Shown: positions 38,987-61,020, counted from the stretch's first letter. The stretch is DNA of 64,000 bases from Defluviitaleaceae bacterium (GCA_009780765.1 WQZK01000001.1:7246-71245), one strand, 5' to 3'. Notes: generated by a model not told the origin, from the letters alone. Numbers and translations: made by a program.

Positions 38987-39117
38987 AATTGGTACGGGGG
39001 TGCAGAGAAGTTGAAAAAATATGCCACAATGTGAATGAGAGGCTTTAGCGAGGTTTTATGGCTTGAAGAGTTTGATAAAATAGTTTGAAATAAATAATAA
39101 AAGGTGTGATTTTTTGC

Positions 39118-39146
39118 TTGACATTATGTCGCAAATATATTATTAT
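39118..39146 (+). promoter_or_regulatory. Promoter of abiEi/abiEii
   Basis: TTGACA (39118-39123), a 17-nt spacer, then TATTAT (39141-39146). The abiEi ATG at 39157 lies only 10 nt after the -10 box. Confidence 0.55.
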
Positions 39147-39156
39147 ATACGAGCAT

Positions 39157-39750
39157 ATGTCAAGTGCTTTAGATTTAATTATGCAGCTTGCTGCGGAGAA
39201 TAACGGAATTCTGTTTGCGTCGGATGCAAGCAAGCTAGGGATTTCAAGAGAGAGCTTGCGGCAGGCTAAGTTGGCGGGGCTGATTGAGAGTGTCAGTCAT
39301 GGTGTTTATGTCACTGCCGAGACCTTGCCTGATGATGCTTTTATTTTGCAACGCAAGTATGATAAGGCTATTTTTTCGCATGAGACGGCAGCCTATTTTT
39401 TGGGGTTTACAACACGAGACCCGTTGGTGTTCTCGGTGACAGTGCCATCGGGGTATAATTCAAGACTTCTCACTGACGGCAATGCAAAGATTTATTATAG
39501 CGCCGAAATCAAACAAGAGGATATTGTTGTTACAAAGACTATGTTTAATAGAGAAGTGAGGTGCTTTAATATTGAGAAAACTATTGTCGATTTTTGCTCC
39601 GGTAATTTCAAAGGGGATAAGGATGTGGCTTTGGAAGTTATCAAGGCGTATGCTCGTTCTAAAAACAAAAATATTTCAAAACTGATGAGCTATGCTACGA
39701 CAAAAAAAGCCAGAGACACAATCAGGGGATATATGGAGGCACTTTTATGA
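39157..39750 (+). CDS. abiEi: Type IV toxin-antitoxin system antitoxin, AbiEi family
   Basis: N-terminal wHTH 'LIMQLAAENNGILFASDASKLGISRESLRQAKLAGLIESVSHGVYV' and 'AIFSHETAAYFLGFT'. The stop overlaps the abiEii start (ATGA). The ATG at 39157 is preferred to the track start at 39106. Confidence 0.85.
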   Translation: MSSALDLIMQLAAENNGILFASDASKLGISRESLRQAKLAGLIESVSHGVYVTAETLPDDAFILQRKYDKAIFSHETAAYFLGFTTRDPLVFSVTVPSGYNSRLLTDGNAKIYYSAEIKQEDIVVTKTMFNREVRCFNIEKTIVDFCSGNFKGDKDVALEVIKAYARSKNKNISKLMSYATTKKARDTIRGYMEALL

Positions 39751-40694
39751 AAACATCAAGGCAATTAAACGATTTAATCAAAAACCTTTCAAGACAAACT
39801 GGCATTAACGCACAGGTTTTGCAAAAGCGATATTTTATTGAGAGATTTTTAGAGAGAGTTTCTCTTTCGGAGCAAAAACAAAAATTCATCATTAAGGGAG
39901 GCGTGCTAATTTCTGCCCTTGTAGGAATAGCCGCCCGTTCCACAATGGATATTGATATTACAATCAAAAGAATGCCGTTGCATTTAGAATCTGTTGAATA
40001 CGCTGTCAAGAAAATTATTGCCATTAAGATGGATGACAATGTTGAATTTGTTTATAAGGGAGCGGAGAATATTCGGGACGAAAGCGACTATGAATGCTTT
40101 AGGGTAAGCCTTGATGTTATCTTTGACAGGGTGCGTGATAACATCAAGCTAGACATTACAAAAGGCGATGCAATAACTCCTAAAGAGATTGAATTTGGTA
40201 TTGAGACGATGCTAGATAAACGGAAGATTGAGTTATACTCATATAATATCGAGACGGTTTTATCAGAAAAAATCGAGACCATTTTGTCAAGAAGTGTTTT
40301 GAATACCCGCATGAGGGATTTTTATGATTGCTACATCATTGATAAAATGTATCGCAATAAAATTGATGTCAAAACATTTTATGCCGCCATTTTAGCAACG
40401 GCAAGCAAAAGGGGCACGGGGCATATTTTTGATAATACGGAAGCGTTAATTGGCGAAATCAAAGCAAGCACCGATTTGAAGAAGCTATGGGACAACTATT
40501 CCAAAACTTATCCGTATGCCAAGGATATTTCATTTGAAGATGCAGTTGCCTCAATAGAGAGTTTGTTTAGTGCATATAACTCTAAAATATATTTAGAAAA
40601 GCTACGAAAAGCAAAAAAATTGCTTTCTATGGGCAGAGAATTAGATGGCGAGCTACTTACTGAAATACTAACCGAGCTGGAGGATAAAAAGTAG
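39747..40694 (+). CDS. abiEii: Nucleotidyltransferase toxin, AbiEii/AbiGii family
   Basis: 'ERFLERVS......FIIKGGVLISALVG...RSTMDIDIT' NTase motifs (GG...DxD) and 'LSEKIETILSR', 'RMRDFYD'. Confidence 0.88.
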   Translation: MKTSRQLNDLIKNLSRQTGINAQVLQKRYFIERFLERVSLSEQKQKFIIKGGVLISALVGIAARSTMDIDITIKRMPLHLESVEYAVKKIIAIKMDDNVEFVYKGAENIRDESDYECFRVSLDVIFDRVRDNIKLDITKGDAITPKEIEFGIETMLDKRKIELYSYNIETVLSEKIETILSRSVLNTRMRDFYDCYIIDKMYRNKIDVKTFYAAILATASKRGTGHIFDNTEALIGEIKASTDLKKLWDNYSKTYPYAKDISFEDAVASIESLFSAYNSKIYLEKLRKAKKLLSMGRELDGELLTEILTELEDKK

Positions 40695-41461: not shown

Positions 41462-41525
41462 ATAGGTTTCAATACGAGCACAATCATTTGTCCTAAATTT
41501 TGTTTAGAAAAGGGATAAATAATAG

Positions 41526-41555
41526 TTGCTATTTATATGGTAGTTATGATATAAT
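41526..41555 (+). promoter_or_regulatory. Promoter of the Fic/type I R-M operon (extended -10)
   Basis: TTGCTA (41526-41531), then TGaTATAAT (41547-41555). An AGAGG RBS and the ATG at 41578 follow. Confidence 0.55.
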
Positions 41556-41577
41556 TCTCTTGTGTAGAGGTATCTCT

Positions 41578-42771
41578 ATGCGAGAGGATTTTTTTGTGCA
41601 GGATAAAAGTATTCCAAACAATGGTCTTATAAGACTTACTAATATTAAATTTGAAGAAAACCCCGCTATATTAAAAATGGCGGAGGAGGCTCGTGTTGCA
41701 ATTGAGATACTCAATTACGAATTAAAGAAAAAACCATCGCTGGAAGTGTTTCTTGACACACTTTACATGCAAGAGGCGAGGCAGTCTAGCAGCATTGAAA
41801 ATATTGAGACCACTAATGACGAGTTATTCAAGGCGGTTCTTGGCGTTTTTGATTCAGAGGAAACTAGAGCGGTGCACGCCTATACTGATGCAATAAAATA
41901 TGGCAGCAGTCTCTTAACTCAAAAAGAGATGTTTAACCGAGAGGATATTGACCAGATGCAAGCATTGCTTGGCATTAGTGAAACGGGAGTGCGGAAAAAT
42001 AGCCCGAAAATAGAAACATCCCTTACTCGCATAGTCAACAAAGCGACAGGAGAAATTGTTTATACCCCGCCACATGGCGAAGGGGTTATTAAAAACCTTT
42101 TGGATGATATGTTAGAGTTTGTTTATAGTGATGATATTTACACAATTCATCCGCTTATCAAAATCGCTCTTGCACATCAGCAGTTTGAAAAAATTCACCC
42201 ATATAAAGACGGTAACGGACGCACGGGACGGATAATCAATATTTTGCTTATGGTGCAAAAGAATTATTTATGTGCACCGATATTGTATGCAAGTAATTTT
42301 ATCAACACGCACAAATCAGAGTATTATCAATTTTTGCAGGATTGTGATGACGGTGATTATGTGCCATTCGTGGAGTTCACGTTGACTAGCTTTTTGAAGT
42401 CAGCACAAAAAACGCTGTCGCTGGTTAATGCAATATCTGCAAAAGTTGATGGGTATTCTACTACAGAATACATCAATGAGGAGCGTGGTTTTAAGGGGCA
42501 TACGGAGTTGATTAAAGGCATTATTAAAATAATGTTTACAAAAGTATATTTTACTAGAAAGGATTTAGAGATTGTAATTTGTGTTGATAAAGCTAGTGGC
42601 AAGCCAAAAATAGAAATGCCCAACAAGAACACTATTACAGCATATTTAGAAAACTTTAAGAATGCAGGGCTTATAGAAGAAGAAGTAATGGTTGGCAAAA
42701 AGGGCAACCCAAAAATATTCAAAAATGTGGAGTTGATTCGCATCATCGAAGAGGAAAACAATAATGACTAA
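41578..42771 (+). CDS. Fic-family protein (AMPylase-type, with N-terminal inhibitory motif)
   Basis: Fic motif 'HPYKDGNGRTGR'. The upstream 'SSSIEN' fits the (S/T)xxxE(G/N) inhibitory helix. A C-terminal wHTH-like extension is present. The ATG at 41578 is preferred to the TTG at 41500. Confidence 0.88.
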   Translation: MREDFFVQDKSIPNNGLIRLTNIKFEENPAILKMAEEARVAIEILNYELKKKPSLEVFLDTLYMQEARQSSSIENIETTNDELFKAVLGVFDSEETRAVHAYTDAIKYGSSLLTQKEMFNREDIDQMQALLGISETGVRKNSPKIETSLTRIVNKATGEIVYTPPHGEGVIKNLLDDMLEFVYSDDIYTIHPLIKIALAHQQFEKIHPYKDGNGRTGRIINILLMVQKNYLCAPILYASNFINTHKSEYYQFLQDCDDGDYVPFVEFTLTSFLKSAQKTLSLVNAISAKVDGYSTTEYINEERGFKGHTELIKGIIKIMFTKVYFTRKDLEIVICVDKASGKPKIEMPNKNTITAYLENFKNAGLIEEEVMVGKKGNPKIFKNVELIRIIEEENNND

Positions 42772-44596
42772 ACCAATGATAAAGAATAGACCAGAGCTTG
42801 ATAACAAGATTAAGCATATTCTAAAAAGCGTTGCGAATAAGCTTCGTGGGCTTTATCTAAGCGAAAAATATGGCAATGTAATTATACCTTTTTGTATATT
42901 ACGCCGCTTTGATTGTATGCTGGAAGAAAAGAATGAAGAGATAAAAAAAGCCTTAGAAGTTTTTGCTAAGTTAGAGTCAAAACAAAAAGAAGCCGCTATT
43001 ATGAAAAGATGCGGTGTGCCTTTTTATAATTCTAAGTGCATTACTTTTAGTGACTTATTGGGTGACATCAAAAACATTAAAATAAATTTTGTTGAATATA
43101 TAAAAGCATTCAGCGAGAATGTCCAAGATATTTTGGACAATCTTGATTTTCAAAAAGAAGTCAAAAATCTATCAAAGGGTAACCATTTGCTAGAAATGAT
43201 ACGGGAGTTTGCCGATATTGATTTTAGTTTAACTTCTGTTGACCAACATAGTATGGGATATATTTTTGAAGAGATTATCCGTGAATACAAAGCCAACGCC
43301 GAGGCGGGCGACCACTACACCCCGCGCGAGATAGTTGATTTGTGTATTGATTTAATTTTAGCCGAGCATGCGGAAGTCTTTGGTAAAAAGGATAAAATTA
43401 TAGAAGTGTATGATGGCTGTTGCGGAACAGGAGGAATGCTTTTTACCGCAAAACAACGGGCGAGAGAAAGGCTTGGTAAAAGTGATGATGAGGTAGTCTT
43501 GTTTGGGCAAGATGTTAATCCCGATGCTTATGCTATCTGCAAAGCAGAAATGCTTATACGAGGCGAAGACCCATCTAATATAAAGTTGGGTAGCACACTA
43601 AGCGAAGATTTTTGGTTTGATGATATGCGAAAGTTTGATATTTGTATAACCAACCCACCCTTTGGAGTGGAGTGGAAAATCGACCAAGAGCATGTCAAAA
43701 GAGAAGCGGAAGAGCAATTAGACCCACGCACTCGTTTTAAGCCTAAACTGCCAAGAATAAATGACGGGCAATTACTCTTTATGCAAAATATGTTACACAA
43801 GCTAAAAGACGATGGGCGTATGGCAATTATCCATAACGGCAGTCCATTATTTAGCGGTGATGCCGAGGGTGGCGAAAGTGAAGTTAGACGCTATATATTA
43901 GAGAATGATTTGTTAGAAGCTATTATCGCTTTGCCCGAGCAAATGTTTTATAATACAGGCATAGCCACTTATATTTGGATATTATCAAAGAATAAGAGCA
44001 CAAAGCGAAAAGGTTTTGTGCAGCTTATCAATGCTAACTTGACTAAGGAAGATAATTTTGTGGGTAATGGACAAGGATTATTTTGGACAGACCTAAAACC
44101 GAAATCACTAGGTAACAAGCGGCGTGAAATTAAAGAAACGCATAAAAGCGACATCATAACCATTTATCAACAAAACAAAGAAAATGACTTTTGCAGAATA
44201 TTTCCGAATGCTTTTTTCTTTTATCACAAAGTATTTGTAGAGCAGCCTATGTTGGATGATAAAGGCAACTTGCAATACGACCGCAAAGGCAATCTAATAA
44301 TAGACAAGAAAAAAGCAGATGTAGAGAATATTTCCTATAGGGCAGTTAGCAAGGACGGAAGTTTTGTGTCAGTTGATATAGATTCATACTTGCAAACAGA
44401 AGTCGCACCTTTTGTGCCTAATTACACATATGATACAGCCAAGACCAAAGTAGGGGTAGAAATACCTTTTACACGATATTTTTATAAATACACACCACCT
44501 AAAAAAAGCGATGATTTACTTGTCGATATAAAAGCACTAGAAGCTAAAATTGCTCAAAGTATGGGGAGCATAATAGGAGGTGGCGATGGCAAATAA
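42764..44596 (+). CDS. hsdM: Type I restriction-modification system methyltransferase subunit
   Basis: HsdM_N-like N-terminus ('LRG...KYGNVIIPFCILRRFD'), motif I 'YDGCCGTGGML', motif IV 'ITNPPFGVEW', and 'GRMAIIHNGSPLF'. Confidence 0.93.
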   Translation: MTKPMIKNRPELDNKIKHILKSVANKLRGLYLSEKYGNVIIPFCILRRFDCMLEEKNEEIKKALEVFAKLESKQKEAAIMKRCGVPFYNSKCITFSDLLGDIKNIKINFVEYIKAFSENVQDILDNLDFQKEVKNLSKGNHLLEMIREFADIDFSLTSVDQHSMGYIFEEIIREYKANAEAGDHYTPREIVDLCIDLILAEHAEVFGKKDKIIEVYDGCCGTGGMLFTAKQRARERLGKSDDEVVLFGQDVNPDAYAICKAEMLIRGEDPSNIKLGSTLSEDFWFDDMRKFDICITNPPFGVEWKIDQEHVKREAEEQLDPRTRFKPKLPRINDGQLLFMQNMLHKLKDDGRMAIIHNGSPLFSGDAEGGESEVRRYILENDLLEAIIALPEQMFYNTGIATYIWILSKNKSTKRKGFVQLINANLTKEDNFVGNGQGLFWTDLKPKSLGNKRREIKETHKSDIITIYQQNKENDFCRIFPNAFFFYHKVFVEQPMLDDKGNLQYDRKGNLIIDKKKADVENISYRAVSKDGSFVSVDIDSYLQTEVAPFVPNYTYDTAKTKVGVEIPFTRYFYKYTPPKKSDDLLVDIKALEAKIAQSMGSIIGGGDGK

Positions 44597-45737
44597 GAAA
44601 ACAGCTAAAAAAATAACAAAACCGCAACAAGCTCCCAAGCCCAATCCGTTAAAAGATTATTACATTGCCTATATTGATATTTTAGGTTATGTGCAATTTT
44701 TCAAAGAATATCCAGAAAAAGTTGCAGATTTTCTAAATGATATTCACACAGTTGTTAATCAAGTTGCTCTGCAAACAAATCAGCTTAACGCAGTTGTAAA
44801 TATGATTGAAGCTCCGTTTGAATTTAAGTATAAGATTTTTTCGGATAATTTTTTGTTTTGTCTTGAAGCTCTTGATAAATCCGAATTACCTAAAGATTTT
44901 GATAGAATATTATTTTTGTGGTACTTAAAAATGGTTGCCGAGATACAGGCGATGTTTGTAACTAAGTATGGATTACTTGTTAGAGGTGGAGTTACCAAAG
45001 GGCAGCTTTCTTTTAACGATGATTATATTTTTGGGCAAGGATTAGTTGATGCGGTTAATTTAGAAAAAAAGGCTCAATTTCCAAGAATAATTGTTGATGA
45101 AAGTTTGTATCATATGCTAGCTGCAAGAGATTTGCCTAAAGAGTGCGAGGGAAAAAACTGTGGAAAATTTGAACATGCAAAAAGCATAGAAAATATGGTC
45201 ACAGCACTAGGAAAAACTGTTCTTAGTTTAGATAATGACAAGCTAGTGCATTTATCGTATTTGGATGAAGACAATCCGATTTTTGATGCGATGGCAATTT
45301 TTGGTTTAGATATAAAAAGTATGCTAGGCTTAGTAAGCCAAATAACACAAGTTCCTGATTGTCTGCCACCAAAGTTTTTAGAAATAATCAATGGTATTAT
45401 CAGCAACCTTAATGCCGAAGAACTAAACCGAAAAGCGTTTTGCTTAGAAAGGCTAAAAGCACATAGGGGAGAAATTGTCGCAATGGTTAAACAAAAATGC
45501 GACAAAATTCCAGTAGATTATAAAGCTAACTATAGAGAATTGCAAAAAATTATATGCAAATATAAGTGGGTGCTTGATTATCATAATTGGATTTGTGATA
45601 GATTCAATCACTTAGATTTGAGTATTGTATATAAAGTAGAAATTGTTGCGCTTATGCGATATGATGCAGAGCCTTTATTTTGTATAAAGATTTTGGATGA
45701 GCAGGATAATGGGGAGGTGGCTGATGGTAAAAAATAG
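44586..45737 (+). CDS. Uncharacterised protein, paralogue A: N-terminal class III nucleotidyl-cyclase-like motif pattern plus Cys/His C-terminal domain
   Basis: AGGAGGTG RBS. The start overlaps the hsdM stop. Motifs: 'YIAYIDILGY', 'YKIFSDNFLF', 'VRGGVTKGQLSF..DYIFGQGLVDAVNLEKKAQFPRIIVD', and C-terminal 'CKYKWVLDYHNWICDRFNH'. Coding status is near-certain. The function is inferred only. Confidence 0.6.
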   Translation: MANKKTAKKITKPQQAPKPNPLKDYYIAYIDILGYVQFFKEYPEKVADFLNDIHTVVNQVALQTNQLNAVVNMIEAPFEFKYKIFSDNFLFCLEALDKSELPKDFDRILFLWYLKMVAEIQAMFVTKYGLLVRGGVTKGQLSFNDDYIFGQGLVDAVNLEKKAQFPRIIVDESLYHMLAARDLPKECEGKNCGKFEHAKSIENMVTALGKTVLSLDNDKLVHLSYLDEDNPIFDAMAIFGLDIKSMLGLVSQITQVPDCLPPKFLEIINGIISNLNAEELNRKAFCLERLKAHRGEIVAMVKQKCDKIPVDYKANYRELQKIICKYKWVLDYHNWICDRFNHLDLSIVYKVEIVALMRYDAEPLFCIKILDEQDNGEVADGKK

Positions 45738-46827
45738 TAGCACTAAAAAGAAAACAGTTGTCTCGCAAGAAGTTTGCAAACCAAGTCCATTAAAGGATTA
45801 TTATATCGCCTATATTGATTTAATTGGGTACAGGCAGATTTTTAGTGAGCAACCAGATAGAATAAAGGACTTTCTTAATGATATTCATAATCTTGTAAAT
45901 GCTTTTATAGAAAGAGCCAAGCAAACAAATGCGAGTTTAGGGGCAATATCATCCGATGGATTTCAGTACAAGATATTTTCTGACAACTTTTTAATATGTT
46001 TTCCTGTTCCCAAAAATGCAGACAGGATAAGCCATGTAACTTTTTTAAGAATAATAGCAGATATTCAAAGAGGCTTTATAACAGAGTATAGAATGTTCGT
46101 TAGAGGCGGTGTAACAATAGGGCAGCTATCTTTTAATGAAAACTATATATTCGGAGCAGGGCTTATTAAGGCAGTTGACCTAGAGCAAAAGGCAAGGCTT
46201 CCAAGAATAATCGTTGATAAGGATTTACGGACTTTATTAAATGGTGGAGAAGTGCCTGAGGGGGCGTGTAATTGTGATAAATGTTATGTAAAATATGTTG
46301 AAGAATTGAAAGGTGAAATAGCTTATTTAACGCTACGGAACGCTACTACTTTGGTTGATGCAGATGGCGAGTGTTTTTTGTCTTACTTAGATGTGACTAA
46401 TCAAGATGCCATAATTTACGAGAGAGTGCAAGGGGCAGGCCCTAAGTTAGTATCAAAAGAAATCCTAGAGGCCTGCAACAATTATGCAGACAATAAAGAA
46501 AAAATAGATAATCATTATAAAGAAGCAACGCTTGATAGGTTGACTACACACAGGGCTTTAATTATTGCAATAATTAAAAAGTATTGCCAAGATTTTAGAC
46601 TAGATAAGTCAAGGACGGATTTTCAAGCTCAAGTAAAAGAACTCCAAAAGAGAGTTTGCAAATATAAATGGGTTGTGGAGTATCATAATGAAATTTGTAC
46701 ACGGTTTAATCATTCAAATTTGTTGATACCTTTTGTCATGGAAATAGTGCCGATTATGCACTATGACGCATATCCGCTACTATTTATTATCAAAATACTG
46801 GAAGATGCAGTGGAGGTGAAGTCATGA
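45724..46827 (+). CDS. Uncharacterised protein, paralogue B of 44586-45737
   Basis: GGAGGTG RBS 6 nt upstream of the ATG at 45724. It overlaps the stop of paralogue A, and its own stop overlaps the hsdS ATG (ATGA). Motifs: 'YIAYIDLIGY', 'YKIFSDNFLI', 'VRGGVTIGQLSF..NYIFGAGLIKAVDLEQKARLPRIIVD', 'CKYKWVVEYHNEICTRFNH'. Confidence 0.6.
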   Translation: MVKNSSTKKKTVVSQEVCKPSPLKDYYIAYIDLIGYRQIFSEQPDRIKDFLNDIHNLVNAFIERAKQTNASLGAISSDGFQYKIFSDNFLICFPVPKNADRISHVTFLRIIADIQRGFITEYRMFVRGGVTIGQLSFNENYIFGAGLIKAVDLEQKARLPRIIVDKDLRTLLNGGEVPEGACNCDKCYVKYVEELKGEIAYLTLRNATTLVDADGECFLSYLDVTNQDAIIYERVQGAGPKLVSKEILEACNNYADNKEKIDNHYKEATLDRLTTHRALIIAIIKKYCQDFRLDKSRTDFQAQVKELQKRVCKYKWVVEYHNEICTRFNHSNLLIPFVMEIVPIMHYDAYPLLFIIKILEDAVEVKS

Positions 46828-48071
46828 GAGAGATGAAAGATAGCGGTGTTGAGTGGGTTGGTGAGATTCCTGTTGAATGGAGAACTGCTAGAATGCGCTT
46901 CTTGTCTAAAATTACAACAGGAAGTAAAGATACTGTTGATAGAAATGACGAAGGAGCATATCCGTTTTATGTAAGGTCTCCAAAAATAGAGAAAATTGAT
47001 TCTTACTCTTTTGATGGTGAGGCTGTATTGATGGCAGGTGACGGAGTCGGCGCGGGGAAAGTGTTTCATTATGTAAACACAAAATTTGATTTTCATCAGC
47101 GTGTATATTGTTTTTATGAGTTTGACAAAATACTTGGCAAGTTTTGTTATTATTTTTTGAATGAAAATTTCAAAAAGGAAATGGAGAGAGGCAGTTATAA
47201 AGCAACAGTTGACTCAATTAGACTCCCTATGATTTTGGATTTTGAAGTTACCTTGCCAGATTTAACAACTCAAAAAAAGATACTGGAGTATATTGAGTTA
47301 AAAACTTCTGAAGTTGACAGAGGCATTGCGGAGATTGAGGAAAGCATTGAGAGGCTGATTGAATACAAAAAGTCTATCATAACCGAGGCAGTAACCAAAG
47401 GTCTTGATAAGTTTGCCCTCATGAAAGACAGCGGTATCGAGTGGATAGGCGATATTCCTAAGGGTTGGATTGTAAGTCCACTTAAGAATTTGGGTGAAGC
47501 GATAATAGGTTTGACATATTCGCCAGAAGATATTTCCGAAGAGGGAGTGTTGGTTCTTAGGTCTTCAAATATCCAGCAAGGTAAATTATCTTTTGAAGAT
47601 AATGTATATGTTACAAAAGAAATACCAGAAAAGCTAATGGTAAAAAAAGAAGACATTTTGATTTGTTCTCGAAATGGAAGTAAGGATTTAATTGGGAAAA
47701 GTGTTTTAATTGGCGATGACTTAGAAAATAGTTCTTTTGGAACTTTTATGACAATATTTAGAGGGGAGTTTAACAAGTTTATAAGTTATGTGTTTCTTTC
47801 CGAAATTTTTGATTATCATGTTGAATCATTTTTAACAAGCACGGTGAATCAGTTGACATCAGGCAACTTGAACAATATTAAAATAACAATACCTACCGAC
47901 AAGAACGAGCAACAACAAATAGCTGACTATTTAGATAAAAAATGTGAAAAGATTGATTCTATTTTGCAAGACAAAAAAAATTTAATAGCTAAACTTAAAG
48001 AATACAAACAAAGCCTTATATATGAATATGTAACAGGTAAAAAAGAAGTCCCTGCAGGAGGTGTGGCATGA
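46824..48071 (+). CDS. hsdS: Type I restriction-modification system specificity subunit
   Basis: Two target-recognition halves, each opening 'MKDSG[VI]EW[VI]G[ED]IP..W'. Conserved spacer helices 'LIEYKKSIITEAVTKGL' and 'LKEYKQSLIYEYVTGKK'. Confidence 0.92.
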   Translation: MREMKDSGVEWVGEIPVEWRTARMRFLSKITTGSKDTVDRNDEGAYPFYVRSPKIEKIDSYSFDGEAVLMAGDGVGAGKVFHYVNTKFDFHQRVYCFYEFDKILGKFCYYFLNENFKKEMERGSYKATVDSIRLPMILDFEVTLPDLTTQKKILEYIELKTSEVDRGIAEIEESIERLIEYKKSIITEAVTKGLDKFALMKDSGIEWIGDIPKGWIVSPLKNLGEAIIGLTYSPEDISEEGVLVLRSSNIQQGKLSFEDNVYVTKEIPEKLMVKKEDILICSRNGSKDLIGKSVLIGDDLENSSFGTFMTIFRGEFNKFISYVFLSEIFDYHVESFLTSTVNQLTSGNLNNIKITIPTDKNEQQQIADYLDKKCEKIDSILQDKKNLIAKLKEYKQSLIYEYVTGKKEVPAGGVA

Positions 48072-48141
48072 GCAATGAAAATTTAAGCAACCTTGTTTCC
48101 CGAGGTCGGGTAGCAAGATGTAAAAACATGGGAGGTGCAGC

Positions 48142-49185
48142 ATGAGTAAATATCCAAAAACGACAAAAGAAGTCCCTATTATAATGTATCAAACCGAAGA
48201 TGGGCAAACCAAAATGGAGGTTATGTTTGACGGCGATACAGTTTGGCTAACTCAAGAAAAAATGGCTGAACTCTTTCAGCGTAGCAAATCCACAGTTAAT
48301 GAGCATTTGAAAAACATATTTTCAGAGGGCGAATTAGTAGAGGGGGATGTGATTATTAAATTCGGAAATTCCGAATTTAATAAAGACCACAAAAAGCCAA
48401 CTAATTTTTATAATCTTGATGCTATACTTGCGGTGGGTTATAGAGTTAAATCTCACCGAGGCATACATTTTAGAAAATGGGCGAGCGGTATATTAAAAGA
48501 GTATATGCGTAAGGGTTTTGCGATGAATGATGATTTGCTCAAGCAAGCAGGCGGAGGACAATACTTCAAAGAGCTACTTAATCGCATTAGAGATATTCGT
48601 GCTAGCGAAAAGGTTTTTTATCGCCAAGTGCTAGACCTTTTTGCAACAAGCGTTGATTATGACCCTAAGAGCGAGATTGCGGGGGATTTTTTTGCTAAGA
48701 TGCAAAACATGCTTTATTATTCGGTTACCAAACAAACTGCCGCAGAGATGATAGCAAAACGAGCTAATGCTTATGACCCCTTTATGGGACTTATGGCTTT
48801 TAAGGGAGAGAGACCTACCAAAGCAGAAGTAACAGTTGCCAAAAATTATTTGGGTGAAAAAGAGGGTAAAGAACTTAGGCTTATGGTAAGTGCTTATCTT
48901 GATGTCGCAGAAATGATAGCTAATGAAGAAAGGCTAATGTATATGATAGATTGGGCTAAAGAGCTAGAGGATTTTATACTTTATCGGAAGAAACCTGTTC
49001 TAAAGCATGCAGGCAGTATTGAAAAAACCGAAGCTAATGAAAGGGCTTTAGAGCAATATAGAATATATAGGTCGAGGAATGGGACTGAATTGACGCAAGT
49101 AGAGAGGGACTTTTTGGAAACTGTGAAAAGAACCTACGCACTGCTTGAGGGTAAAAAGAAGGATGGCGAGGAGGGAGAGGAATGA
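48142..49185 (+). CDS. rhuM: RhuM-family protein
   Basis: 'IIMYQTEDGQTKMEVMFDGDTVWLTQEKMAELFQRSKSTVNEHLKNIFSEGEL' and 'NLDAILAVGYRVKSHRGIHFRKWA' are characteristic RhuM blocks. Confidence 0.85.
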   Translation: MSKYPKTTKEVPIIMYQTEDGQTKMEVMFDGDTVWLTQEKMAELFQRSKSTVNEHLKNIFSEGELVEGDVIIKFGNSEFNKDHKKPTNFYNLDAILAVGYRVKSHRGIHFRKWASGILKEYMRKGFAMNDDLLKQAGGGQYFKELLNRIRDIRASEKVFYRQVLDLFATSVDYDPKSEIAGDFFAKMQNMLYYSVTKQTAAEMIAKRANAYDPFMGLMAFKGERPTKAEVTVAKNYLGEKEGKELRLMVSAYLDVAEMIANEERLMYMIDWAKELEDFILYRKKPVLKHAGSIEKTEANERALEQYRIYRSRNGTELTQVERDFLETVKRTYALLEGKKKDGEEGEE

Positions 49186-52181
49186 AAAAATACGCTTTCT
49201 TAAAAGAAAAGCCTTTTCAAAATGAGATATTTTTGTATCTTGTAGAGAAACTCGGTTATCAAATTAACAAAAAGGAAGATTATAACTATACCTATGCTAT
49301 TGACACGGGTAAGTTGTTTTCGTTTATAAGAGACACGCAAAGTGAAGAATGGGATAAGTTTAGTGATTATTATGGTGATAAAGCTGAAGAGATTTTTTTG
49401 CAAAAACTAAATGAAAAAATTGATAAAAGAAAACTTATTAAGGGTAGATACACAGGTGGATTATTAAATGTACTGCAAGGAACTATTGAGGATATAAGGA
49501 CTGGTGCAAGCATTAGGATAGCCTATCTTAGTCCCAGCGAAGCTGGGTTTGAAAACATCAATGAGTTGTACGCAAAAAACATTTTGTCGGTTAGTTATGA
49601 ATTTGAATACGAAAGCTCCGAGCAGTTAAAATCAAAGGGTAAAAACCAGAGTAATAGGGTGGATTTAGCAATTTTTATCAATGGTATTCCTGTTATTATG
49701 ATAGAGACTAAGAAGTTATTGGCGGGGCAGTCGGCAAGGTTTAATGGCACGGAGCAGTATAAGAATAATCGTGACCCTAATGAATTAGTGTTTAGCTTTA
49801 ATAAACGGGTTGTTGCATATTTTGCAGTTGATGAATACGAAGCATATGTGACCACCCAGCTAGATAAACGAGATAGTTTTTTCTTGCCGTTTAATATGGG
49901 CAATGAGGCAGGCGGCTCGGGCAATCCGCAAGCACTAGAGGACAAGCGGGCAACATATTATTTGTGGGAACAAATTTTGCAAAGAGATATGATTCTCAAA
50001 ATTATGCGGGAATTTGTTTTTGAGGACATTGATAAAGACAATGGTAAGCCATTTATTATCTTTCCGAGATTCCATCAAGTTGATGCTGTTTTAGAATGTG
50101 AAAGAGATTTTGCAGAAAAGGGAGTTGGGGGCAGGTATATTATTTGGCACAGTGCCGGTAGCGGTAAAACAATCACAATAGCGTTACTTGCGTTTAGGTT
50201 ACTTGCTAAAAAAGACATAAATACTGTTATTATTATTAGTGATAGAACTGTTATTGATGGGCAGCTACGAGACCAACTTATTGCGGTGGATAACGGCGAT
50301 AGTCGAGTTAAATGGGCGGAGGGTAATAGTGCCGAGTTATCGAGATATATCAACAGTGGTAATATGATTGTTGGAACTACGCTCCAAAAATTCCCGTTTA
50401 TACTAGACCAGCTTGCATCAAGAAAAAGTAAAGGGTATGCAATAATCATTGACGAAGCACATTCTTCTACAAGTGGTATGACTATGAGTAGGGTAAGCGA
50501 GACCTTTACAGGCAAGAGCTTAAAGGAGGCTATTAAATTAGAGGACAAAGCGGATGAGGCAGAAGATGGTCAAACTTTGATATTAAAGCAGGCTGATAAA
50601 ATTAGGGCTACGAGTAAGGTTAGTTATTATGCCTTTACGGCGACACCGAAAAAAGAGACGCAGGAATTGTTTGGCACACGCAATCAGCGAGGCAAGGAAT
50701 GTTTTCATAAATATACTATGAAACAGGCAATAGAAGAAGACTTTATTCTTAATCCCCTTGCTTGCTATAAAAACATGAAAGCCTTTTATGATATTGAAAA
50801 GAAAAAGGACAGCAGTGAAGAGTATGACGAACAGCGTTCTAAAAGAAAGATTTTTCATCATATCTCAAGTGATGATGAGGTGATTACACTTAAGAGCCAA
50901 GAGATGCTAAGTGATTTTTGTGGGCTAAGAATGGGGTGGTTAGGCGGACAGTCAAAAGCAATGGTAGTTACGCCGTCTAGGCTACATGCGGTTAAGTATA
51001 AGTTTATCCTTGATAAGTTGATAAGGGAGAGCGGTTATAAGATTAAGACTGTTGTGGCGTTTACGGGTAAGGTTAAGTACGGGGATAATTTGTATTCTGA
51101 ATCAGAATTAAATGCTGGATATAAAGATAAAGACATAAGGAAGCTGATTAAGAATAATCCCGAAGTTAGAATTATTATTGTTGCGGACAAATTGCAAACA
51201 GGCTTTGATGAGCCGTTGCTTTGCTGTATGTATGTGGACAAGAAGTTTAATAGTGCGGTAAAGGCGGTGCAAACTCTGTCGAGAGTAAATAGGGCTAAAA
51301 AAGGCAAGAAGACTTTTGTTCTTGATTTTGTTAATGATGCCGATGACATCAAGGCGTATTTTGAAAAGTATTATGATAGCGATATATTTTTGCCTACGAT
51401 GAGCGAGACCGACCCAGAGGCAATCAACAGGATGAAAGACGAGATATTTGCATATGGTCTTTTTGAGGCACAAAGTGTTATAGATTTTGATTCATATGTT
51501 AAGAAGGAAAACAGTGCGGCGATTGAAAAAATGGGCGATGCGATAAAGCATGAGGCGAGCAAGCTCGACAAGGATAAGCGCAAATATTTTTACAAGCTTT
51601 GTACAAGGTTTGTTAAATTATATTACTATGTTGGAATATTGTTAGAGCGTTGGGATGAAAAAAATCAATTATTGGTAGATTTTTTGCGAGAGGTTGTAAT
51701 AAAGGTGCTTTATGAACAAGAGATGGCAAATGTTATCAACCCTAGTGAGTTTGTAAGTTTGGCGGCGGTGCGACTAAAATTGATGCAAGATGAGCAAGAA
51801 ATTCCGCTAGAATCAATAGTGGTAGAGTATGGCAAGGATAAAGAAGAGATTACTCTCACGGACAAAAAGTATTCCTTTTTAGATAAGATTATAGAAGACC
51901 TTAATGCTACATTATCCGAGCCAGAAAAACAAGATGCCTATACGATGGTGGACAGGGTAATGGTTGATGAAGAAGTTGTAAGAAAAGTTAAAAACAATAC
52001 GGGCAAGACCACGCATGATTTTGTGCGCAATCGGGTACAGGATTTTATTTTAGAAAAAATTATAGCGGCGGCAAATGGCGAAAGAGACTTTTATGTAAAG
52101 CTCGCTAACAAAGGGGAGCTGCTTGCTATTATTGCCGCCAATATCATCGCCCAACTGCAAGGGCAAAAGTATGTAAGCTAG
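49182..52181 (+). CDS. hsdR: Type I restriction endonuclease subunit R
   Basis: N-terminal nuclease 'RVDLAIFINGIPVIMIETKK', helicase motif I 'WHSAGSGKT', motif II 'IIIDEAHSS', 'FTATP', 'LQTGFDEP', 'QTLSRVNR'. 999 aa. The start overlaps the rhuM stop (ATGA). Confidence 0.95.
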   Translation: MKKYAFLKEKPFQNEIFLYLVEKLGYQINKKEDYNYTYAIDTGKLFSFIRDTQSEEWDKFSDYYGDKAEEIFLQKLNEKIDKRKLIKGRYTGGLLNVLQGTIEDIRTGASIRIAYLSPSEAGFENINELYAKNILSVSYEFEYESSEQLKSKGKNQSNRVDLAIFINGIPVIMIETKKLLAGQSARFNGTEQYKNNRDPNELVFSFNKRVVAYFAVDEYEAYVTTQLDKRDSFFLPFNMGNEAGGSGNPQALEDKRATYYLWEQILQRDMILKIMREFVFEDIDKDNGKPFIIFPRFHQVDAVLECERDFAEKGVGGRYIIWHSAGSGKTITIALLAFRLLAKKDINTVIIISDRTVIDGQLRDQLIAVDNGDSRVKWAEGNSAELSRYINSGNMIVGTTLQKFPFILDQLASRKSKGYAIIIDEAHSSTSGMTMSRVSETFTGKSLKEAIKLEDKADEAEDGQTLILKQADKIRATSKVSYYAFTATPKKETQELFGTRNQRGKECFHKYTMKQAIEEDFILNPLACYKNMKAFYDIEKKKDSSEEYDEQRSKRKIFHHISSDDEVITLKSQEMLSDFCGLRMGWLGGQSKAMVVTPSRLHAVKYKFILDKLIRESGYKIKTVVAFTGKVKYGDNLYSESELNAGYKDKDIRKLIKNNPEVRIIIVADKLQTGFDEPLLCCMYVDKKFNSAVKAVQTLSRVNRAKKGKKTFVLDFVNDADDIKAYFEKYYDSDIFLPTMSETDPEAINRMKDEIFAYGLFEAQSVIDFDSYVKKENSAAIEKMGDAIKHEASKLDKDKRKYFYKLCTRFVKLYYYVGILLERWDEKNQLLVDFLREVVIKVLYEQEMANVINPSEFVSLAAVRLKLMQDEQEIPLESIVVEYGKDKEEITLTDKKYSFLDKIIEDLNATLSEPEKQDAYTMVDRVMVDEEVVRKVKNNTGKTTHDFVRNRVQDFILEKIIAAANGERDFYVKLANKGELLAIIAANIIAQLQGQKYVS

Positions 52182-52230: not shown

Positions 52231-52259
52231 TTGACATTTATGTACTCACATAGTATAAT
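52231..52259 (+). promoter_or_regulatory. Consensus sigma-70 promoter ahead of the ThsB-like gene
   Basis: TTGACA (52231-52236), a 17-nt spacer, then TATAAT (52254-52259). An AGGAG RBS (52297-52301) and GTG at 52311 follow. Confidence 0.65.
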
Positions 52260-52310: not shown

Positions 52311-52805
52311 GTGCAAGACAGCATTCAAAAGATGAGATTGCAAAACAAGCCTAATATACATTTTTGTTTTGACACCGAGCAAGATGGGTTAAGGGCAGCG
52401 GTGGTTAGTAATTCTGTTGTAGGCAGGGGTGAAATCGTTGCAACTTTAGAAAGTGCTACGGTTGTAGTCATATTGGTAGGGTGTTACACTAATGGCAGCC
52501 GTATTCAACAAACGATACGGCAAAGCCTAGATAGAAAAAAAGCGTTGTTAGTGATAGGTGTTGGTAACATTAAAAGTGTTGCAGGACAAGTTGATTTTGC
52601 AGGAGCTAACCCACTAAACGAATATGAGATATTTGACAATAGGTTTGGGTATGCCCGTCGAGCCAGTGACATTTATGAATATCATGATTGGGTAATTGGC
52701 AGTGGTTATCAAAAATTAAGTGGTTGGATAATTAAGGCTCAACAAATTGCAACAAGTTTGTATGCAGGCAACGCACAAAAACTAACTCACGGAGGAAAAA
52801 AATAA
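52311..52805 (+). CDS. ThsB-like TIR-domain protein (DUF1863-type), solitary, lacking the usual catalytic Glu
   Basis: Collinear with recalled ThsB/DUF1863 blocks: 'NIHFCFDTEQDG' (beta-A), 'ATVVVILVGCYT', 'ALLVIGVGNIKS....GANP', and C-terminal 'YEYHDWVIGSGYQKLSGWI'. Confidence 0.65.
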   Translation: MQDSIQKMRLQNKPNIHFCFDTEQDGLRAAVVSNSVVGRGEIVATLESATVVVILVGCYTNGSRIQQTIRQSLDRKKALLVIGVGNIKSVAGQVDFAGANPLNEYEIFDNRFGYARRASDIYEYHDWVIGSGYQKLSGWIIKAQQIATSLYAGNAQKLTHGGKK

Positions 52806-53125
52806 TGGCAACAACAGTAAACAATGCGTTTGAAGAATTTATGAGGGATATTGTAAATTTAGATGCAGACATCGTAAAGGCGGCTTCAAATACCTATGCC
52901 AACACCCCTCCACAACGGGCAAAGAGGCACACGCAAGTTTTCGCAAAATCAAGAAATCAAGACAAAGGGGCGCACCGCCGATGCACAAAAACGGGCCGCA
53001 AAATTCTCAAAGGCAACGGGTTTGTATGGTCGCCAAAAGCTGGAGCGTGGCAACGCCAGCTTAACAATAATGGCAGATACGCCGCAAGGCGGGTGCTAGA
53101 GATTTTACAGCGGGAGGGCAAGTGA
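52805..53125 (+). pseudogene. Chimeric ORF: about 30 codons of a truncated AT-rich gene fused to a GC-richer Arg/Lys-rich tail of mobile-element type
   Basis: The N-terminus 'MATTVNNAFEEFMRDIVNLDADIVKAA' matches the local AT-rich composition. From about 52890 the DNA becomes visibly GC-richer. It encodes '...GFVWSPKAGAWQRQLNNNGRYAARRVLEIL', which recalls tails of ICE/plasmid proteins (memory only). Confidence 0.4.
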
Positions 53126-53365: not shown

Positions 53366-53438
53366 TTTTTCTTGCATTTGTATATAAAATCTGCTATATT
53401 TATTATGGTTGCTTTTGGCAACAGCAAAGATAATATCT

Positions 53439-54332
53439 ATGGGCAATTTAATAGCAAAAGAGTATAAGTCCTTTGAGGATATTAAACACACTGATGAAAG
53501 TGGAGCGGAGTTTTGGCTGGCAAGAGAGCTATGTCCTGTTTTGCAATATGCTCAATGGCGCAATTTTCAAGGTGTTATAGACAAAGCCATGCTTGCCTGC
53601 CGTAATAGTGGCTTTGATGTTTTTGACCATTTTGCTGACGCCAGCAAAACGGTCGCTATGCCATCAAAAGCAAAGCCCAAAATCATTCCCGATTATAAAC
53701 TTTCTCGCTATGCGTGTTATCTAATTGTTCAAAACGGCAACCCCCGAAAAGAGATTATAGCACTAGGGCAAACTTACTTTGCTATTCAAACCCGCCGCCA
53801 AGAAGTGCAAGATTATTTCAACCAATTAGATGAGGATAATAAACGGCTTGTAGTACGAGGCAACATAACGCAGTGGAATCAAATGTTAGCAGAATCGGCA
53901 CACCGAGCAGGCATTATAGACAATGAGGAATTTGCAGAGTTTCAAAACGCTGGTTATGCGGGGCTTTATGGCGGCGAGACTGTATCAGAAATACACGCCC
54001 GCAAGCAGCTCAAACCCAAAGACAAAATACTAGATTTTATGAATTCTAGCGAGTTGTCGGCAAATTTATTCCGCATAACACTAGCGGACGACAAAATGAA
54101 AAAGGGAAATGTATCAACGCCGCACGATGCAATAGAGGCACATAGCATAGCAGGGCAAGAGGTGCGGGGTGCTATTATAAGGGCAGATGCTATTTTGCCC
54201 GAAGACCAACCAACACCAGATAAAAGTGTTAAGCAAATTGCAGCCGAGCAAATAGCAAGAATAAAAGCAGAGGCAAAAAAGAAGCCTTTGATGTTAGATG
54301 AGGATTATGAGGGCTTTGAGGATGACGACTAA
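53439..54332 (+). CDS. dinD: DNA-damage-inducible protein D (DinD/Bro-N-like)
   Basis: 'FEDIKHTDESGAEFWLARELCPVLQYAQWRNFQGVIDKAMLACRNSG', 'DYKLSRYACYLIVQNGNPRKEIIALGQTYFAIQTRRQE'. The ATG at 53439 is preferred over the TTG at 53409. Confidence 0.8.
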   Translation: MGNLIAKEYKSFEDIKHTDESGAEFWLARELCPVLQYAQWRNFQGVIDKAMLACRNSGFDVFDHFADASKTVAMPSKAKPKIIPDYKLSRYACYLIVQNGNPRKEIIALGQTYFAIQTRRQEVQDYFNQLDEDNKRLVVRGNITQWNQMLAESAHRAGIIDNEEFAEFQNAGYAGLYGGETVSEIHARKQLKPKDKILDFMNSSELSANLFRITLADDKMKKGNVSTPHDAIEAHSIAGQEVRGAIIRADAILPEDQPTPDKSVKQIAAEQIARIKAEAKKKPLMLDEDYEGFEDDD

Positions 54333-55332: not shown

Positions 55333-56061
55333 ATGATTCAGCTTATAAATGGCGATAGCATAGAGCAATTAAAATTATTAAAAGACGGGTCGGTTGATTG
55401 TATTGTAACAAGTCCGCCGTATTGGAAAGGTTTTGAGTATGAGGCGTATTTTAATTCTTACAAGCAATATCTTGAATGGTGTGAGGCTTGGCTAAGGGAG
55501 TGCAAAAGAGTATTAAAGCATAATGGCACATTTTATCTCAATGTTATAAACGACAGCGAGATAACAATACGGGCATTTGAGATTATGGAGATAGCAACCC
55601 GCCGCCTTATGTACAAATTACACGATACAATTATTTGGTATAGGTATAACCAACAGCCCGCAAATACCAAGAGGCAACTCACTAATCAATGTGAGTATGT
55701 TTTTATGCTTAGGCAAACATCCGCAAATATTGAATTAGATAAAGAGGCGGCATACAACAACGCCCCCGATATGTTCAAAACAAAAAATGTCGGCAATGTG
55801 TGGGAGCTTCCCTTTAATAAGGGCAAAGAAAAGAATACGGCTTTTGGGCGAAAAGAGACCGAGAGCAAATGGGGGCATAGCGGATTTCCCTTGCTTTTGC
55901 CCGAGACCTGTATTTTATTATCCACCAAAGAGGGCGATACAGTGTTGGATTTATTTATGGGAACGGGGACAGTGGGCGTTGCTTGTAAAAAACATAATAG
56001 AAAATTTATCGGCATTGACATAGACAAAAATGCTTATGCGATAGCAAAGAAAAATTTGTAA
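55333..56061 (+). CDS. Beta-class DNA methyltransferase (N4-C/N6-A family, SPPY type)
   Basis: Motif IV 'IVTSPPYW' precedes the AdoMet motif 'DLFMGTGTVGVA' (order IV then I, i.e. PF01555-type). SPPY is typical of m4C enzymes, but the modified base is not proven. Confidence 0.85.
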   Translation: MIQLINGDSIEQLKLLKDGSVDCIVTSPPYWKGFEYEAYFNSYKQYLEWCEAWLRECKRVLKHNGTFYLNVINDSEITIRAFEIMEIATRRLMYKLHDTIIWYRYNQQPANTKRQLTNQCEYVFMLRQTSANIELDKEAAYNNAPDMFKTKNVGNVWELPFNKGKEKNTAFGRKETESKWGHSGFPLLLPETCILLSTKEGDTVLDLFMGTGTVGVACKKHNRKFIGIDIDKNAYAIAKKNL

Positions 56062-56076
56062 TAAGGAGGTGACAGG

Positions 56077-56802
56077 ATGGCAACTAAGGTCGGGCGGAGT
56101 CTTGACGAGATAGACAGTAAGGTCAAGCAGCTCTCCAGCAGTATAAAAGAGAGTAGCAAGAAGACCAAAGAGCTGGATAGGACATTACGGCTTGACCCGA
56201 GCAATACTCGTGTCGCCGCCCAGCAGATGCGGGCGTTGGGGGCGCAGATAGGGCAAGCAACGCAAAAGGTGGCATTATTGCGCCAACGCAAGGCGGAGGC
56301 AAATAGGGAATTACAGCAGGGCGACATCACAGCGGCGGAGTTTGCCAAGATAGAAAAAGCAGTAGAGCAGGCAGAGCTAGAATTACAACGCTTCAATGCT
56401 CAAATGCGTGCAACCAAGCGGATGCAGGTGCAAGTGTTGGCACAACGCTTTGATAGAGTAACCCGCAGTATGCAGCAAGCCCAGCGGGTCGCCCGTACCT
56501 TTAGTCGTCTTATGCTAGGACTTGTCGGAATAATGGCGGCGAGTGTTACAGCCTTTACTCGCAATGCTGTTGCCCTTAACGAGACAGCGGAAGAGTTTGG
56601 TGTGGGCATAAGACAGTTGCAAATCAAGAACACAGTGTCCCCCGAAAATGAGTGGTTTCAATACCGCCAAAACTACAAGGGCTGCACAGTGTCTCCCCCT
56701 AAAAACATGATGGGGCAAGATAACGGGCAGATACAAGAGAGAATACGGCAGGCAAAAATCAGTATTCGCAAAGAAAAGACAAAGTGCAATCCACGCTCCT
56801 AA
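56077..56802 (+). pseudogene. N-terminal fragment of a phage tail tape-measure-like protein
   Basis: Coiled-coil N-terminus ('LDEIDSKVKQLSSSIKESSKKTKELDRTL...AELELQRFNAQMRA'), one TM-like segment ('LMLGLVGIMAASVTAF'), then 'ALNETAEEFGV'. It ends after 241 aa, whereas tape-measure proteins are several-fold longer. It sits in the GC-rich block. Confidence 0.45.
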
Positions 56803-56931
56803 TTACACAGTCTAAGCCGATAATAGCCAGTCTCCGAGGCGTTAGGCGGGGCAGTCGGGAATAAACCCGTCTGAAAAATAAATTAAAAATTTTTTGAAAA
56901 AAGTTGAAAAAGGGGCGAAAAACTGTTCAAA

Positions 56932-57020
56932 ATTCTCCTGCTAACTCAAACTGATTTCTCCCGCCAAGTCAAATAATTTATCATTTTCAAAGATGGTTTT
57001 CTCCCGCAAACTCAAATAAA
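56932..57020. repeat. Cluster of three degenerate direct repeats related to the 38876-38986 cluster
   Basis: Units: ATTCTCCTGCTAACTCAAA; ATTTCTCCCGCCAAGTCAAATA; (CAAAGATGG)TTTTCTCCCGCAAACTCAAATAAA. Confidence 0.5.
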
Positions 57021-57029
57021 ATTCATTCT

Positions 57030-57064
57030 AAGCCCCAAGACCCAAGCGGTTTTGGGGCTTTTTT
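57030..57064 (+). terminator. Intrinsic terminator
   Basis: AAGCCCCAA / TTGGGGCTT perfect 9-bp stem followed by TTTT. Confidence 0.7.
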
Positions 57065-57169
57065 GTGTTGGGGCGTGCCGAGATTTATTTTACAGGATGG
57101 CGAAGAATAGTTGTGTGAAAATTGAAACACAAATTTTTTTAGAAATTTGGCATTATTCCGTAAAAAGAA

Positions 57170-57198
57170 TTGACTTTGTTCAGAATAAAGCATATAAT
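57170..57198 (+). promoter_or_regulatory. Promoter of the HTH-methyltransferase / type IIG R-M / Gabija block
   Basis: TTGACT (57170-57175), a 17-nt spacer, then TATAAT (57193-57198). A GGAGG RBS and the ATG at 57230 follow. Confidence 0.6.
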
Positions 57199-57229
57199 TA
57201 TACTGTCCTAGGACACATGGAGGCATAAT

Positions 57230-61004: not shown

Positions 61005-61020
61005 AAGTAAAGGTAAACTT

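Follow-up and report, generated by a model that had tools for sequence, protein, structure and literature searches.

Between the methyltransferase and specificity genes (hsdM and hsdS) of a type I restriction-modification (R-M) operon, a Defluviitaleaceae bacterium carries two adjacent genes, here called A and B, that arose from one gene by an old tandem duplication and belong to a large protein family without a name. The genes lie in a stretch of 64,000 nucleotides (nt) (GCA_009780765.1 WQZK01000001.1:7246-71245), referred to below as the window, and all positions are counted from its first letter. A structural model of A predicts that the N-terminal part of the protein has the palm fold of class III nucleotidyl cyclases, with the metal- and nucleotide-binding half of the active site kept and the residues that promote cyclisation lost. 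Our preferred reading, held with moderate confidence, is that A and B are candidate anti-phage proteins that use nucleoside triphosphate (NTP), act autonomously as single-protein modules, probably of the abortive-infection type, and travel as cargo of the R-M operon.

Two Paralogous Genes in a Type I R-M Operon

Seven genes on one strand at 41.5–52.2 kb make up the operon, in the order Fic/SoFic, hsdM, A, B, hsdS, RhuM/PDC-S05, hsdR (Table 1). All three R-M subunit genes, as assigned by Pfam, lie on this one strand, as in a type I R-M operon. The original prediction, made from the DNA sequence, had called A and B paralogues that are translationally coupled into such an operon, and both points hold. 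The two proteins are 43% identical over ~390 columns (BLASTP, E = 1e-95), with 54% identity in the N-terminal domain and 40% in the C-terminal domain, and every shared block quoted earlier is present. The longest mechanical open reading frames (ORFs) run from 44580 to 45737 for A (385 aa, GTG start) and from 45697 to 46827 for B (376 aa). ATG codons at 44586 and 45724, each 3–4 nt past a GGAGGTG ribosome-binding site (RBS), give the 383 and 367 aa used here. A database protein of 367 aa (P0001, from a Defluviitaleaceae metagenome-assembled genome) is probably B, matched by its length and its 43% identity to A only.

The genes interlock throughout this part of the operon. The Fic ORF runs 8 nt into hsdM, the end of hsdM (stop codon at 44594–44596) overlaps the start of A by 11 nt, the end of A (stop codon at 45735–45737) overlaps the start of B by 14 nt, and the B stop and the hsdS start share the ATGA at 46824–46827; GGAGGTG precedes the starts of A, B and hsdS alike. 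No terminator-like site was found on the + strand within 43140–51200, and a 12/12 consensus promoter-like site lies at 52231–52259, after hsdR.

A Predicted Class III Cyclase Palm

We built an AlphaFold2 (AF2) model of A on 44 homologues (predicted local distance difference test score, pLDDT, 81; predicted template modelling score, pTM, 0.82). Its N-terminal part has a beta-alpha-beta-beta-alpha-beta-alpha-beta topology. When the model was compared with the PDB by Foldseek, the top 50 matches were all class III adenylate or guanylate cyclase domains (E 4e-5 to 7e-4, probability 1.00), at target-normalised template modelling (TM) scores of 0.5–0.67. On this model, the N-terminal 150–165 residues are predicted to adopt the class III nucleotidyl-cyclase palm fold, as had been proposed from the order of the motifs. 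The structural matches include 6yii, a solved class III cyclase-like ATP-binding protein. No GGDEF or Cas10 protein was found among these 50, and no Pfam GGDEF match in A, B or the members scanned; a Foldseek search of BFVD gave nothing useful. Matches in the PDB to a Plasmodium gamete antigen, arenavirus nucleoproteins and diffocin TRI-1, returned by single-sequence and profile searches, were disregarded as due to chance.

No model in Pfam, NCBIfam or PADLOC fits A or B. Against the Pfam family Guanylate_cyc (PF00211), A scores 12.9 bits (E = 0.086, profile positions 10–156 of 183) where the cut-off is 21.9, and B has no match. Matches to this family, all below threshold, are also the most recurrent Pfam matches among members (4 of 44, best E = 0.012).

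An Active Site Kept in Part

Residues are numbered as in the 383-aa form of A, and conservation was counted over 186 diverse members of the family. Profile alignments of the N-terminal domain to the cyclases 1yk9 and 3mr7 are below significance (E 0.4–0.7) and consistent in register. The family's 'yyiaYlDiLGy' pairs with 'EASVLFADIVGF' of 1yk9, and its 'lRGgitkGklyinekfvfGqgLidaveLEekakyPrI' pairs with 'yRIGINIGDIVLEDGDIFGDAVNVAARLEAISEPGAI' of 3mr7. D31 of A thereby falls on the D of FADIVGF in 1yk9. In the AF2 model D87 is at the beta2-beta3 hairpin, between strands 82–87 and 90–96. Three earlier motif assignments are borne out: YIDILGY as the strand with the first metal-binding Asp and VRGG as the R-[IV]-G motif by the HMMER alignments to 1yk9 and 3mr7, and FSDN as the second metal-Asp site by its place at the hairpin.

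Conservation at these positions is close to absolute: D31 in 175/178 members, D87 in 180/182, R133 in 184/186, G134 in 186/186, and a basic residue at position 83, four residues before D87, in 172/181 (K or R). Both metal-binding Asp, the triphosphate-binding Arg and the basic residue at −4 are 95%–100% conserved, and by these alignments the half of the cyclase site that would bind Mg2+ and NTP (two Asp, the Arg of R-x-G, K/R at −4) is intact. In class III cyclases a residue pair (Lys/Asp or Glu/Cys) specifies the base, and K/R83 may be one position of such a pair. The family also has invariant polar residues outside the cyclase set, namely S86 (181/182), N88 (179/182), Q121 (179/185) and E160 (184/185). 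A and B both retain every family-invariant residue.

The other half of the site has changed. In the column of the cyclase transition-state Asn (3mr7 alignment, FGDAVNVAARLE), 184/185 members have I, V, L or M, and the column of the cyclase Arg is variable (E in 73, S in 18, N in 16, K in 16, and others including Q and D). As aligned, the Asn and Arg pair that stabilises the cyclisation transition state in class III cyclases is missing from the family. 'GLVDAVNLEKK' of A had been read as the G-x-x-V-N-x-A-x-R motif of cyclases, and that reading turns out to be out of register. The variable Arg column is the one with N in A and D in B; hence the argument that A keeps Asn while B has Asp, and that the two could form a pseudo-heterodimer, is a registration error without basis. 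We rejected this arrangement, there being no asymmetry at conserved positions and no tandem pair at any of 50 screened loci (L001–L050).

If the fold and the conserved residues are a guide, A and B would bind NTP and catalyse a nucleotidyl transfer that depends on metal and is not necessarily 3',5'-cyclisation. The reaction could be a different nucleotidyl transfer, could yield a non-canonical product or could consume NTP. Like class III cyclases, the proteins would probably act as dimers, whether A:A, B:B or A:B.

The C-Terminal Domain

From about residue 185 to its end A is mostly helical. The part conserved across the family is the motif K-Y-x-W-x4-H-N-x2-C, with K in 146/146, W in 143/146, H in 126/146, N in 138/146 and C in 131/146 sequences. 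A C-x8-H-x3-C-x4-H pattern had been suggested as a possible zinc site; its outer Cys and His occur together in just 4 of ~146 sequences, A and B included, and a four-ligand zinc site was rejected as a feature of the family. Modelled alone, the domain reached a pLDDT of 70 and had no fold match in the PDB (all E > 1) and no sequence match there. We also set aside weak Pfam matches to QueG_DUF1730, ERCC4, Evr1_Alr and KNTC1, which did not recur across members. The lower identity between A and B in this domain than in the N-terminal domain is the pattern expected of a diversifying domain, and the domain is possibly the diversifying, sensing or regulatory part of the protein.

Size and Distribution of the Family

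An exhaustive profile search over 1.84 billion cluster representatives (clusters at 50% identity) found 12,343 representatives at E ≤ 1e-3, 7,577 at E ≤ 1e-10 and 568 at E ≤ 1e-30; a word-indexed search found 43 close relatives only. Most members are 240–300 aa long and consist of the N-terminal domain and a shortened C-terminal core, with no Pfam domain; where they have a name it is 'hypothetical protein'. The extension beyond the palm measures roughly 100–210 aa across the family. Ten longer relatives that came from the full-length profile search include fusions to TPR and HTH domains. No Pfam domain was found in the best 120 matches of the N-domain profile search, and no effector fusion in either set.

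A scan of one genome per species gave 43 loci, mostly from gut and rumen Clostridia, and distant relatives occur on plasmids of Bacillus, Acinetobacter, Agrobacterium and Spirosoma. No relative was found by tblastn among 50,697 phage records. The tandem pair appears special to the window, as the gene is single-copy at 50/50 screened loci.

Genomic Neighbourhood of Relatives

Homologues of A and B are enriched beside R-M and defence genes, as had been anticipated. Scored by home-built HsdM, HsdS and HsdR profiles with Pfam checks, an R-M component lies within 8 kb of the family gene at 15/43 species loci, and is adjacent or one gene away at 11/43. R-M methyltransferases make up a fraction of a percent of genes; measured against this background figure, used in place of a matched control, the rate at the family loci is far above expectation. 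Among 130 proteins encoded within two genes of a family gene at 44 non-redundant loci, the leading Pfam families are N6_Mtase (7), Ribosomal_S9 (6), Ribosomal_L13 (6) and Phage_integrase (5), followed by Methylase_S, Recombinase, HsdM_N and Eco57I (4 each) and ResIII and Resolvase (3 each). The top PADLOC families among these neighbours are the type I methyltransferase and specificity subunits.

The order hsdM-family gene-hsdS with overlapping codons recurs at five loci (L035, L036, L054, L055 and L057), and at three more (L028, L047 and L049) hsdM is followed by a family gene, with the order cut off by the contig end. The order hsdS-family gene-hsdR was found in two different flanks. Other R-M settings include a LlaJI-type operon with a family gene inside it, and family genes directly 3' of an MmeI-type enzyme, of a ResIII helicase, or of an HsdM-HsdS fusion with AIPR upstream. 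At one locus the family gene stands between Abi_C and Abi_2 with a type IIG-like enzyme alongside, and further neighbours are HipA, superfamily 1 helicases, a Schlafen/AlbA_2 protein and T5orf172.

Several side observations concern these loci. FRG-domain proteins occur in two differing R-M operons that hold a family member (L055, 8482–9519; L065, 11931–13007), and may be another recurrent R-M cargo. In the LlaJI-type operon of L065, a 1,121-aa protein with no Pfam match (7811–11176) directly follows the family gene and is a possible partner or further defence gene. DUF6076 and DUF6809 proteins recur near members (L006, 2285–3307; L061, 10992–11945; L001–L003, 10706–10969; L062, 14470–14557). 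The loci look like elements that can integrate or be mobilised, and genes for integrase, TnpV, MobC and ParE/RelB lie nearby. At seven Ruminococcus or Oscillibacter loci (L014, L015, L021, L022, L025, L026 and L027) a lone family gene lies at ~8000–9070, 3' of rplM-rpsI, suggesting that this is a conserved site of integration with no link to R-M.

A Candidate Autonomous Defence Module

The relationships among family members bear on how the gene came to stand between hsdM and hsdS. A and B are most closely related to one another, the gene of L054 is next, and this whole clade is embedded. Four other embedded members (L055, L035, L036 and L057) have non-embedded genes as their best matches; the L035 protein, for instance, is 65% identical to that of L037, which lies beside a helicase and outside R-M. 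Because the best relatives of embedded members are non-embedded, family genes have, to judge from these comparisons, entered the hsdM-hsdS junction on several separate occasions, and near-identical enzymes are predicted to work without HsdMS. RhuM, Fic, OLD, AbiH and FRG genes likewise ride as cargo in such operons. Embedding in R-M operons has been reported to predict defence function (Payne et al., bioRxiv 10.1101/2024.01.29.577857), and TgvAB of the V. cholerae island VPI-2 is a precedent for an R-M-embedded defence (PMC11411939). We therefore favour an autonomous module carried by R-M operons, given both the non-embedded close relatives and the presence of the family beside R-M types that have no HsdMS core. 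Such a module would be a single protein with abortive-infection-type action against phage, its palm doing the chemistry outlined above and its faster-diverging helical C-terminal domain serving for regulation or sensing. In the window, two diverged copies would share one transcript with Fic, HsdM, HsdS, RhuM and HsdR and be coupled to them in translation.

Several results weigh against this interpretation. The cyclase match is at the level of the fold only, with a Pfam score under the cut-off and PDB profile E-values of 0.4–0.7, and with the canonical Asn/Arg pair gone a non-catalytic nucleotide binder is possible. About two-thirds of the sampled loci have no R-M gene nearby, and some, such as L063, have no obvious defence context; at six Ruminococcus-type loci the family gene comes shortly after rplM-rpsI. 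Neighbours were surveyed with simple ORF calls and no matched random-gene control. Neither phage-encoded relatives nor an effector partner was found that might hint at a target, and the defence role of the family is a prediction from sequence, model and gene context.

A bolder version of the idea would have the whole family (~12,000 clusters) be a new palm-enzyme immune family wired to R-M. When restriction is subverted it would make a non-canonical product or deplete NTP, with no separate effector, and A and B would form a heterodimer with two sensing domains. We think this rather unlikely.

Competing Explanations

The alternative that survives best, itself a doubtful one, is that A and B are guards of the R-M system comparable to PrrC or Ronin. 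An HsdM2S1 core would hold them inactive until the R-M complex is disabled by a phage anti-restriction protein, a DNA mimic of the Ocr/ArdA type, or by some other insult, after which nucleotides would be consumed or converted and the infection aborted. Overlapping hsdM-gene-hsdS codons imply co-production with M and S, and the placement is seen in at least five lineages of the family, whose members are only 25%–50% identical. There are precedents as well: HsdMS cages RonA, and ArdA and Ocr release it (bioRxiv 10.1101/2023.04.06.535777), and PrrC is seldom found anywhere but within type I R-M (bioRxiv 10.1101/2024.01.29.577857). However, relatives at 65% identity stand beside helicases or HipA, or alone, the family also occurs beside MmeI, LlaJI-type and type IIG-like enzymes, all of which are without an HsdMS core, and many unrelated cargo genes (RhuM, Fic, OLD, AbiH, FRG) share these operons. 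Gating by the R-M complex is nevertheless possible within the embedded clades.

It is improbable that the palm is a dead pseudo-cyclase that merely binds a nucleotide or a nucleic-acid end as a sensor, leaving the effect to the C-terminal domain or to partners. The loss of the Asn/Arg pair would fit such a protein, as would the appearance of the ATP-binding protein 6yii among the structural matches. Yet both metal-binding Asp, S86, N88, Q121 and R133 are near-absolutely conserved over the 186 members, and conservation of this kind is what would be expected of an active site rather than of a binding pocket.

We also consider it very improbable that the genes have nothing to do with defence, and are either R-M accessories or regulators that tune methylation or restriction, or generic mobile-element genes lodged in R-M operons. 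Frequent integrase, recombinase and TnpV neighbours, plasmid-borne distant relatives and the fixed insertion site after rplM-rpsI in Ruminococcus all speak for this reading; the family is, on the other hand, found beside mechanistically unrelated R-M types and beside non-R-M defence genes, and for many members an accessory role in R-M is excluded because they have no R-M neighbour at all.

Least probable of all is a Pycsar-like signalling cyclase, in which A, B or both would make a cyclic mononucleotide on infection for an effector encoded elsewhere: the class III cyclase fold and the intact metal and triphosphate site agree with it, but the transition-state Asn and Arg are absent, neither protein matches PADLOC PycC at E ≤ 1, most members are lone genes, and no cyclic nucleotide monophosphate (cNMP)-binding, TIR or transmembrane effector is present in the window's operon or recurrent among the neighbours.

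Comparison with Known Systems

A and B are most like a class III cyclase-derived enzyme that falls below the Pfam threshold and lacks the Asn/Arg pair. They share with class III cyclases (PF00211; CyaC 1wc0, Ma1120 4wp8, Rv1625c 1yk9, 3mr7) the palm fold (Foldseek E ~4e-5), the metal Asp of beta1, set in a strand of the form hydrophobic-x-D-[IL]-x-G-aromatic, the second Asp, placed at the beta2-beta3 hairpin, the basic residue at −4, the R-x-G strand and an aligned F-G-x-x-[LV]-x-x-A-x-x-L-E helix. They differ from them in the sub-threshold Pfam score, in the replacement of Asn by I/V, in the variable Arg column, in the family's own invariant S, N, Q and E, and in a C-terminal extension without relatives.

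Pycsar systems likewise place a class III cyclase-type fold in a defence context, but they have PycC, the catalytic pair and an adjacent cNMP-binding transmembrane or TIR effector, none of which we found for A and B. The absence of a Pycsar-type effector had been noted before and is confirmed: A and B have no PADLOC hits at E ≤ 1, the operon neighbours are Fic, HsdM, HsdS, RhuM and HsdR, and no cNMP-binding, transmembrane or TIR effector was found among them or among the 130 neighbour proteins.

A and B resemble PrrC, RloC and other restriction-linked ORFs in being non-R-M genes that are set within a type I R-M operon and expressed together with Hsd subunits. PrrC combines an ABC-ATPase with an anticodon nuclease, whereas A and B have a predicted cyclase palm, an unrelated fold, and no such Pfam or PADLOC matches. 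The place of A and B is the hsdM-hsdS junction. PrrC is almost exclusively embedded, whereas close relatives in the present family occur outside R-M as well. Ronin (HsdMS plus RonA, decoy immunity) offers another parallel in an extra gene tightly linked to hsdM and hsdS, and caging by HsdMS is conceivable here too. Unlike the present operon, however, Ronin has no hsdR, and a membrane peptide of 61 aa serves as its effector in place of soluble enzyme-like proteins of ~370 aa; long hydrophobic helices of the kind that membrane peptides have are absent from the AF2 model.

Unknown genes nested in R-M, BREX and DISARM operons have been collected as defence candidates and several were validated (Payne et al. 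2024; TgvAB), but the present family has no PADLOC HEC or PDC model. No cyclase-fold candidate is mentioned by Payne et al. (bioRxiv 10.1101/2024.01.29.577857), and no account of an R-M-embedded gene with a cyclase fold turned up in our searches of the literature. In having no Pfam, NCBIfam or PADLOC model, A and B match no described defence family, as the original prediction had it.

Defence genes in R-M operons are thus established, and cyclase-fold immune enzymes are already known; what appears to be undescribed is the family itself, with its altered site, an architecture that lacks an effector, and the recurrent placement between hsdM and hsdS.

Other Features of the Window

Table 1. Genes, domains and ribosome-binding sites of the operon (positions in the window)
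Feature	Position	Strand	Evidence
Fic/SoFic gene, first gene of the operon	41500..42771	+	Pfam Fic_N and Fic; PADLOC SoFic E 9.5e-74
hsdM, type I R-M methyltransferase subunit	42764..44596	+	N6_Mtase E 2.4e-57; HsdM_N E 4.6e-14
GGAGGTG RBS of gene A, within hsdM 3' end	44576..44582	+	direct sequence reading
Gene A, 383 aa: predicted cyclase-fold N-domain and helical C-domain	44586..45737	+	ORF; AF2 model; Foldseek
A N-terminal palm domain (predicted), ~residues 23–170	44652..45095	+	secondary structure, invariant columns, alignment to 3mr7/1yk9
A C-terminal domain, ~210 aa, mostly helical, motif K-Y-x-W-x4-H-N-x2-C	45096..45734	+	
GGAGGTG RBS of gene B, within A 3' end	45713..45719	+	direct sequence reading
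Gene B, 367 aa, paralogue of A	45724..46827	+	BLASTP vs A, E 1e-95
GGAGGTG RBS of hsdS, within B 3' end	46812..46818	+	direct sequence reading
hsdS, specificity subunit	46824..48071	+	Methylase_S E 8.1e-22, two stretches
RhuM-family gene (PADLOC candidate PDC-S05)	48142..49185	+	Virulence_RhuM E 3.4e-94; PDC-S05 E 2.5e-133
hsdR, restriction subunit, last gene of the operon	49182..52181	+	HSDR_N, ResIII, SWI2_SNF2, T1R_D3-like

Within the operon, the RhuM gene is a second embedded cargo, set between hsdS and hsdR and overlapping the hsdR start by 4 nt. At the other end, a terminator-like hairpin with a 17-bp stem (41553–41590) may end the unit upstream of Fic. Because this hairpin overlaps the 5' end of the annotated Fic ORF, the true Fic start may be the ATG near 41578 rather than 41500.

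Immediately upstream of the R-M operon is a pair of AbiEi antitoxin and AbiEii toxin genes (39106–40694; AbiEii E = 4e-34). Since this pair adjoins the operon, the region from 38 to 64 kb looks like one long defence island. An 87-aa ORF at 41198–41461 matches only the C-terminal third of PADLOC PDC-S57 (profile positions 147–217 of 221) and looks like the truncated remnant of a defence gene. Downstream of hsdR, two small ORFs without a family match (52311–52805 and 52805–53125) are followed by a Bro-N domain protein (53409–54332). A further cluster at 55333–63156 holds two N6_N4 DNA methylases (55333–56061 and 57230–58276), a 912-aa N6_Mtase/Eco57I-type protein (58266–61004) and a 711-aa OLD-family protein with AAA_15 and TOPRIM domains (61021–63156), and could form a further defence system of the R-M or OLD type.

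Implications

If A and B are defence enzymes, they would represent a third branch of palm- or cyclase-type immunity, beside Pycsar and Cas10/mCpol. This branch would have no separate effector, and its altered active site points to a new nucleotide chemistry. The repeated insertion between hsdM and hsdS provides a clean test of whether R-M-embedded genes are co-located cargo or are gated by the R-M complex, as are PrrC and Ronin. The family is large, wholly without annotation and common among Clostridia of the gut and rumen, and assigning a function once would give an annotation to thousands of 'hypothetical proteins'.

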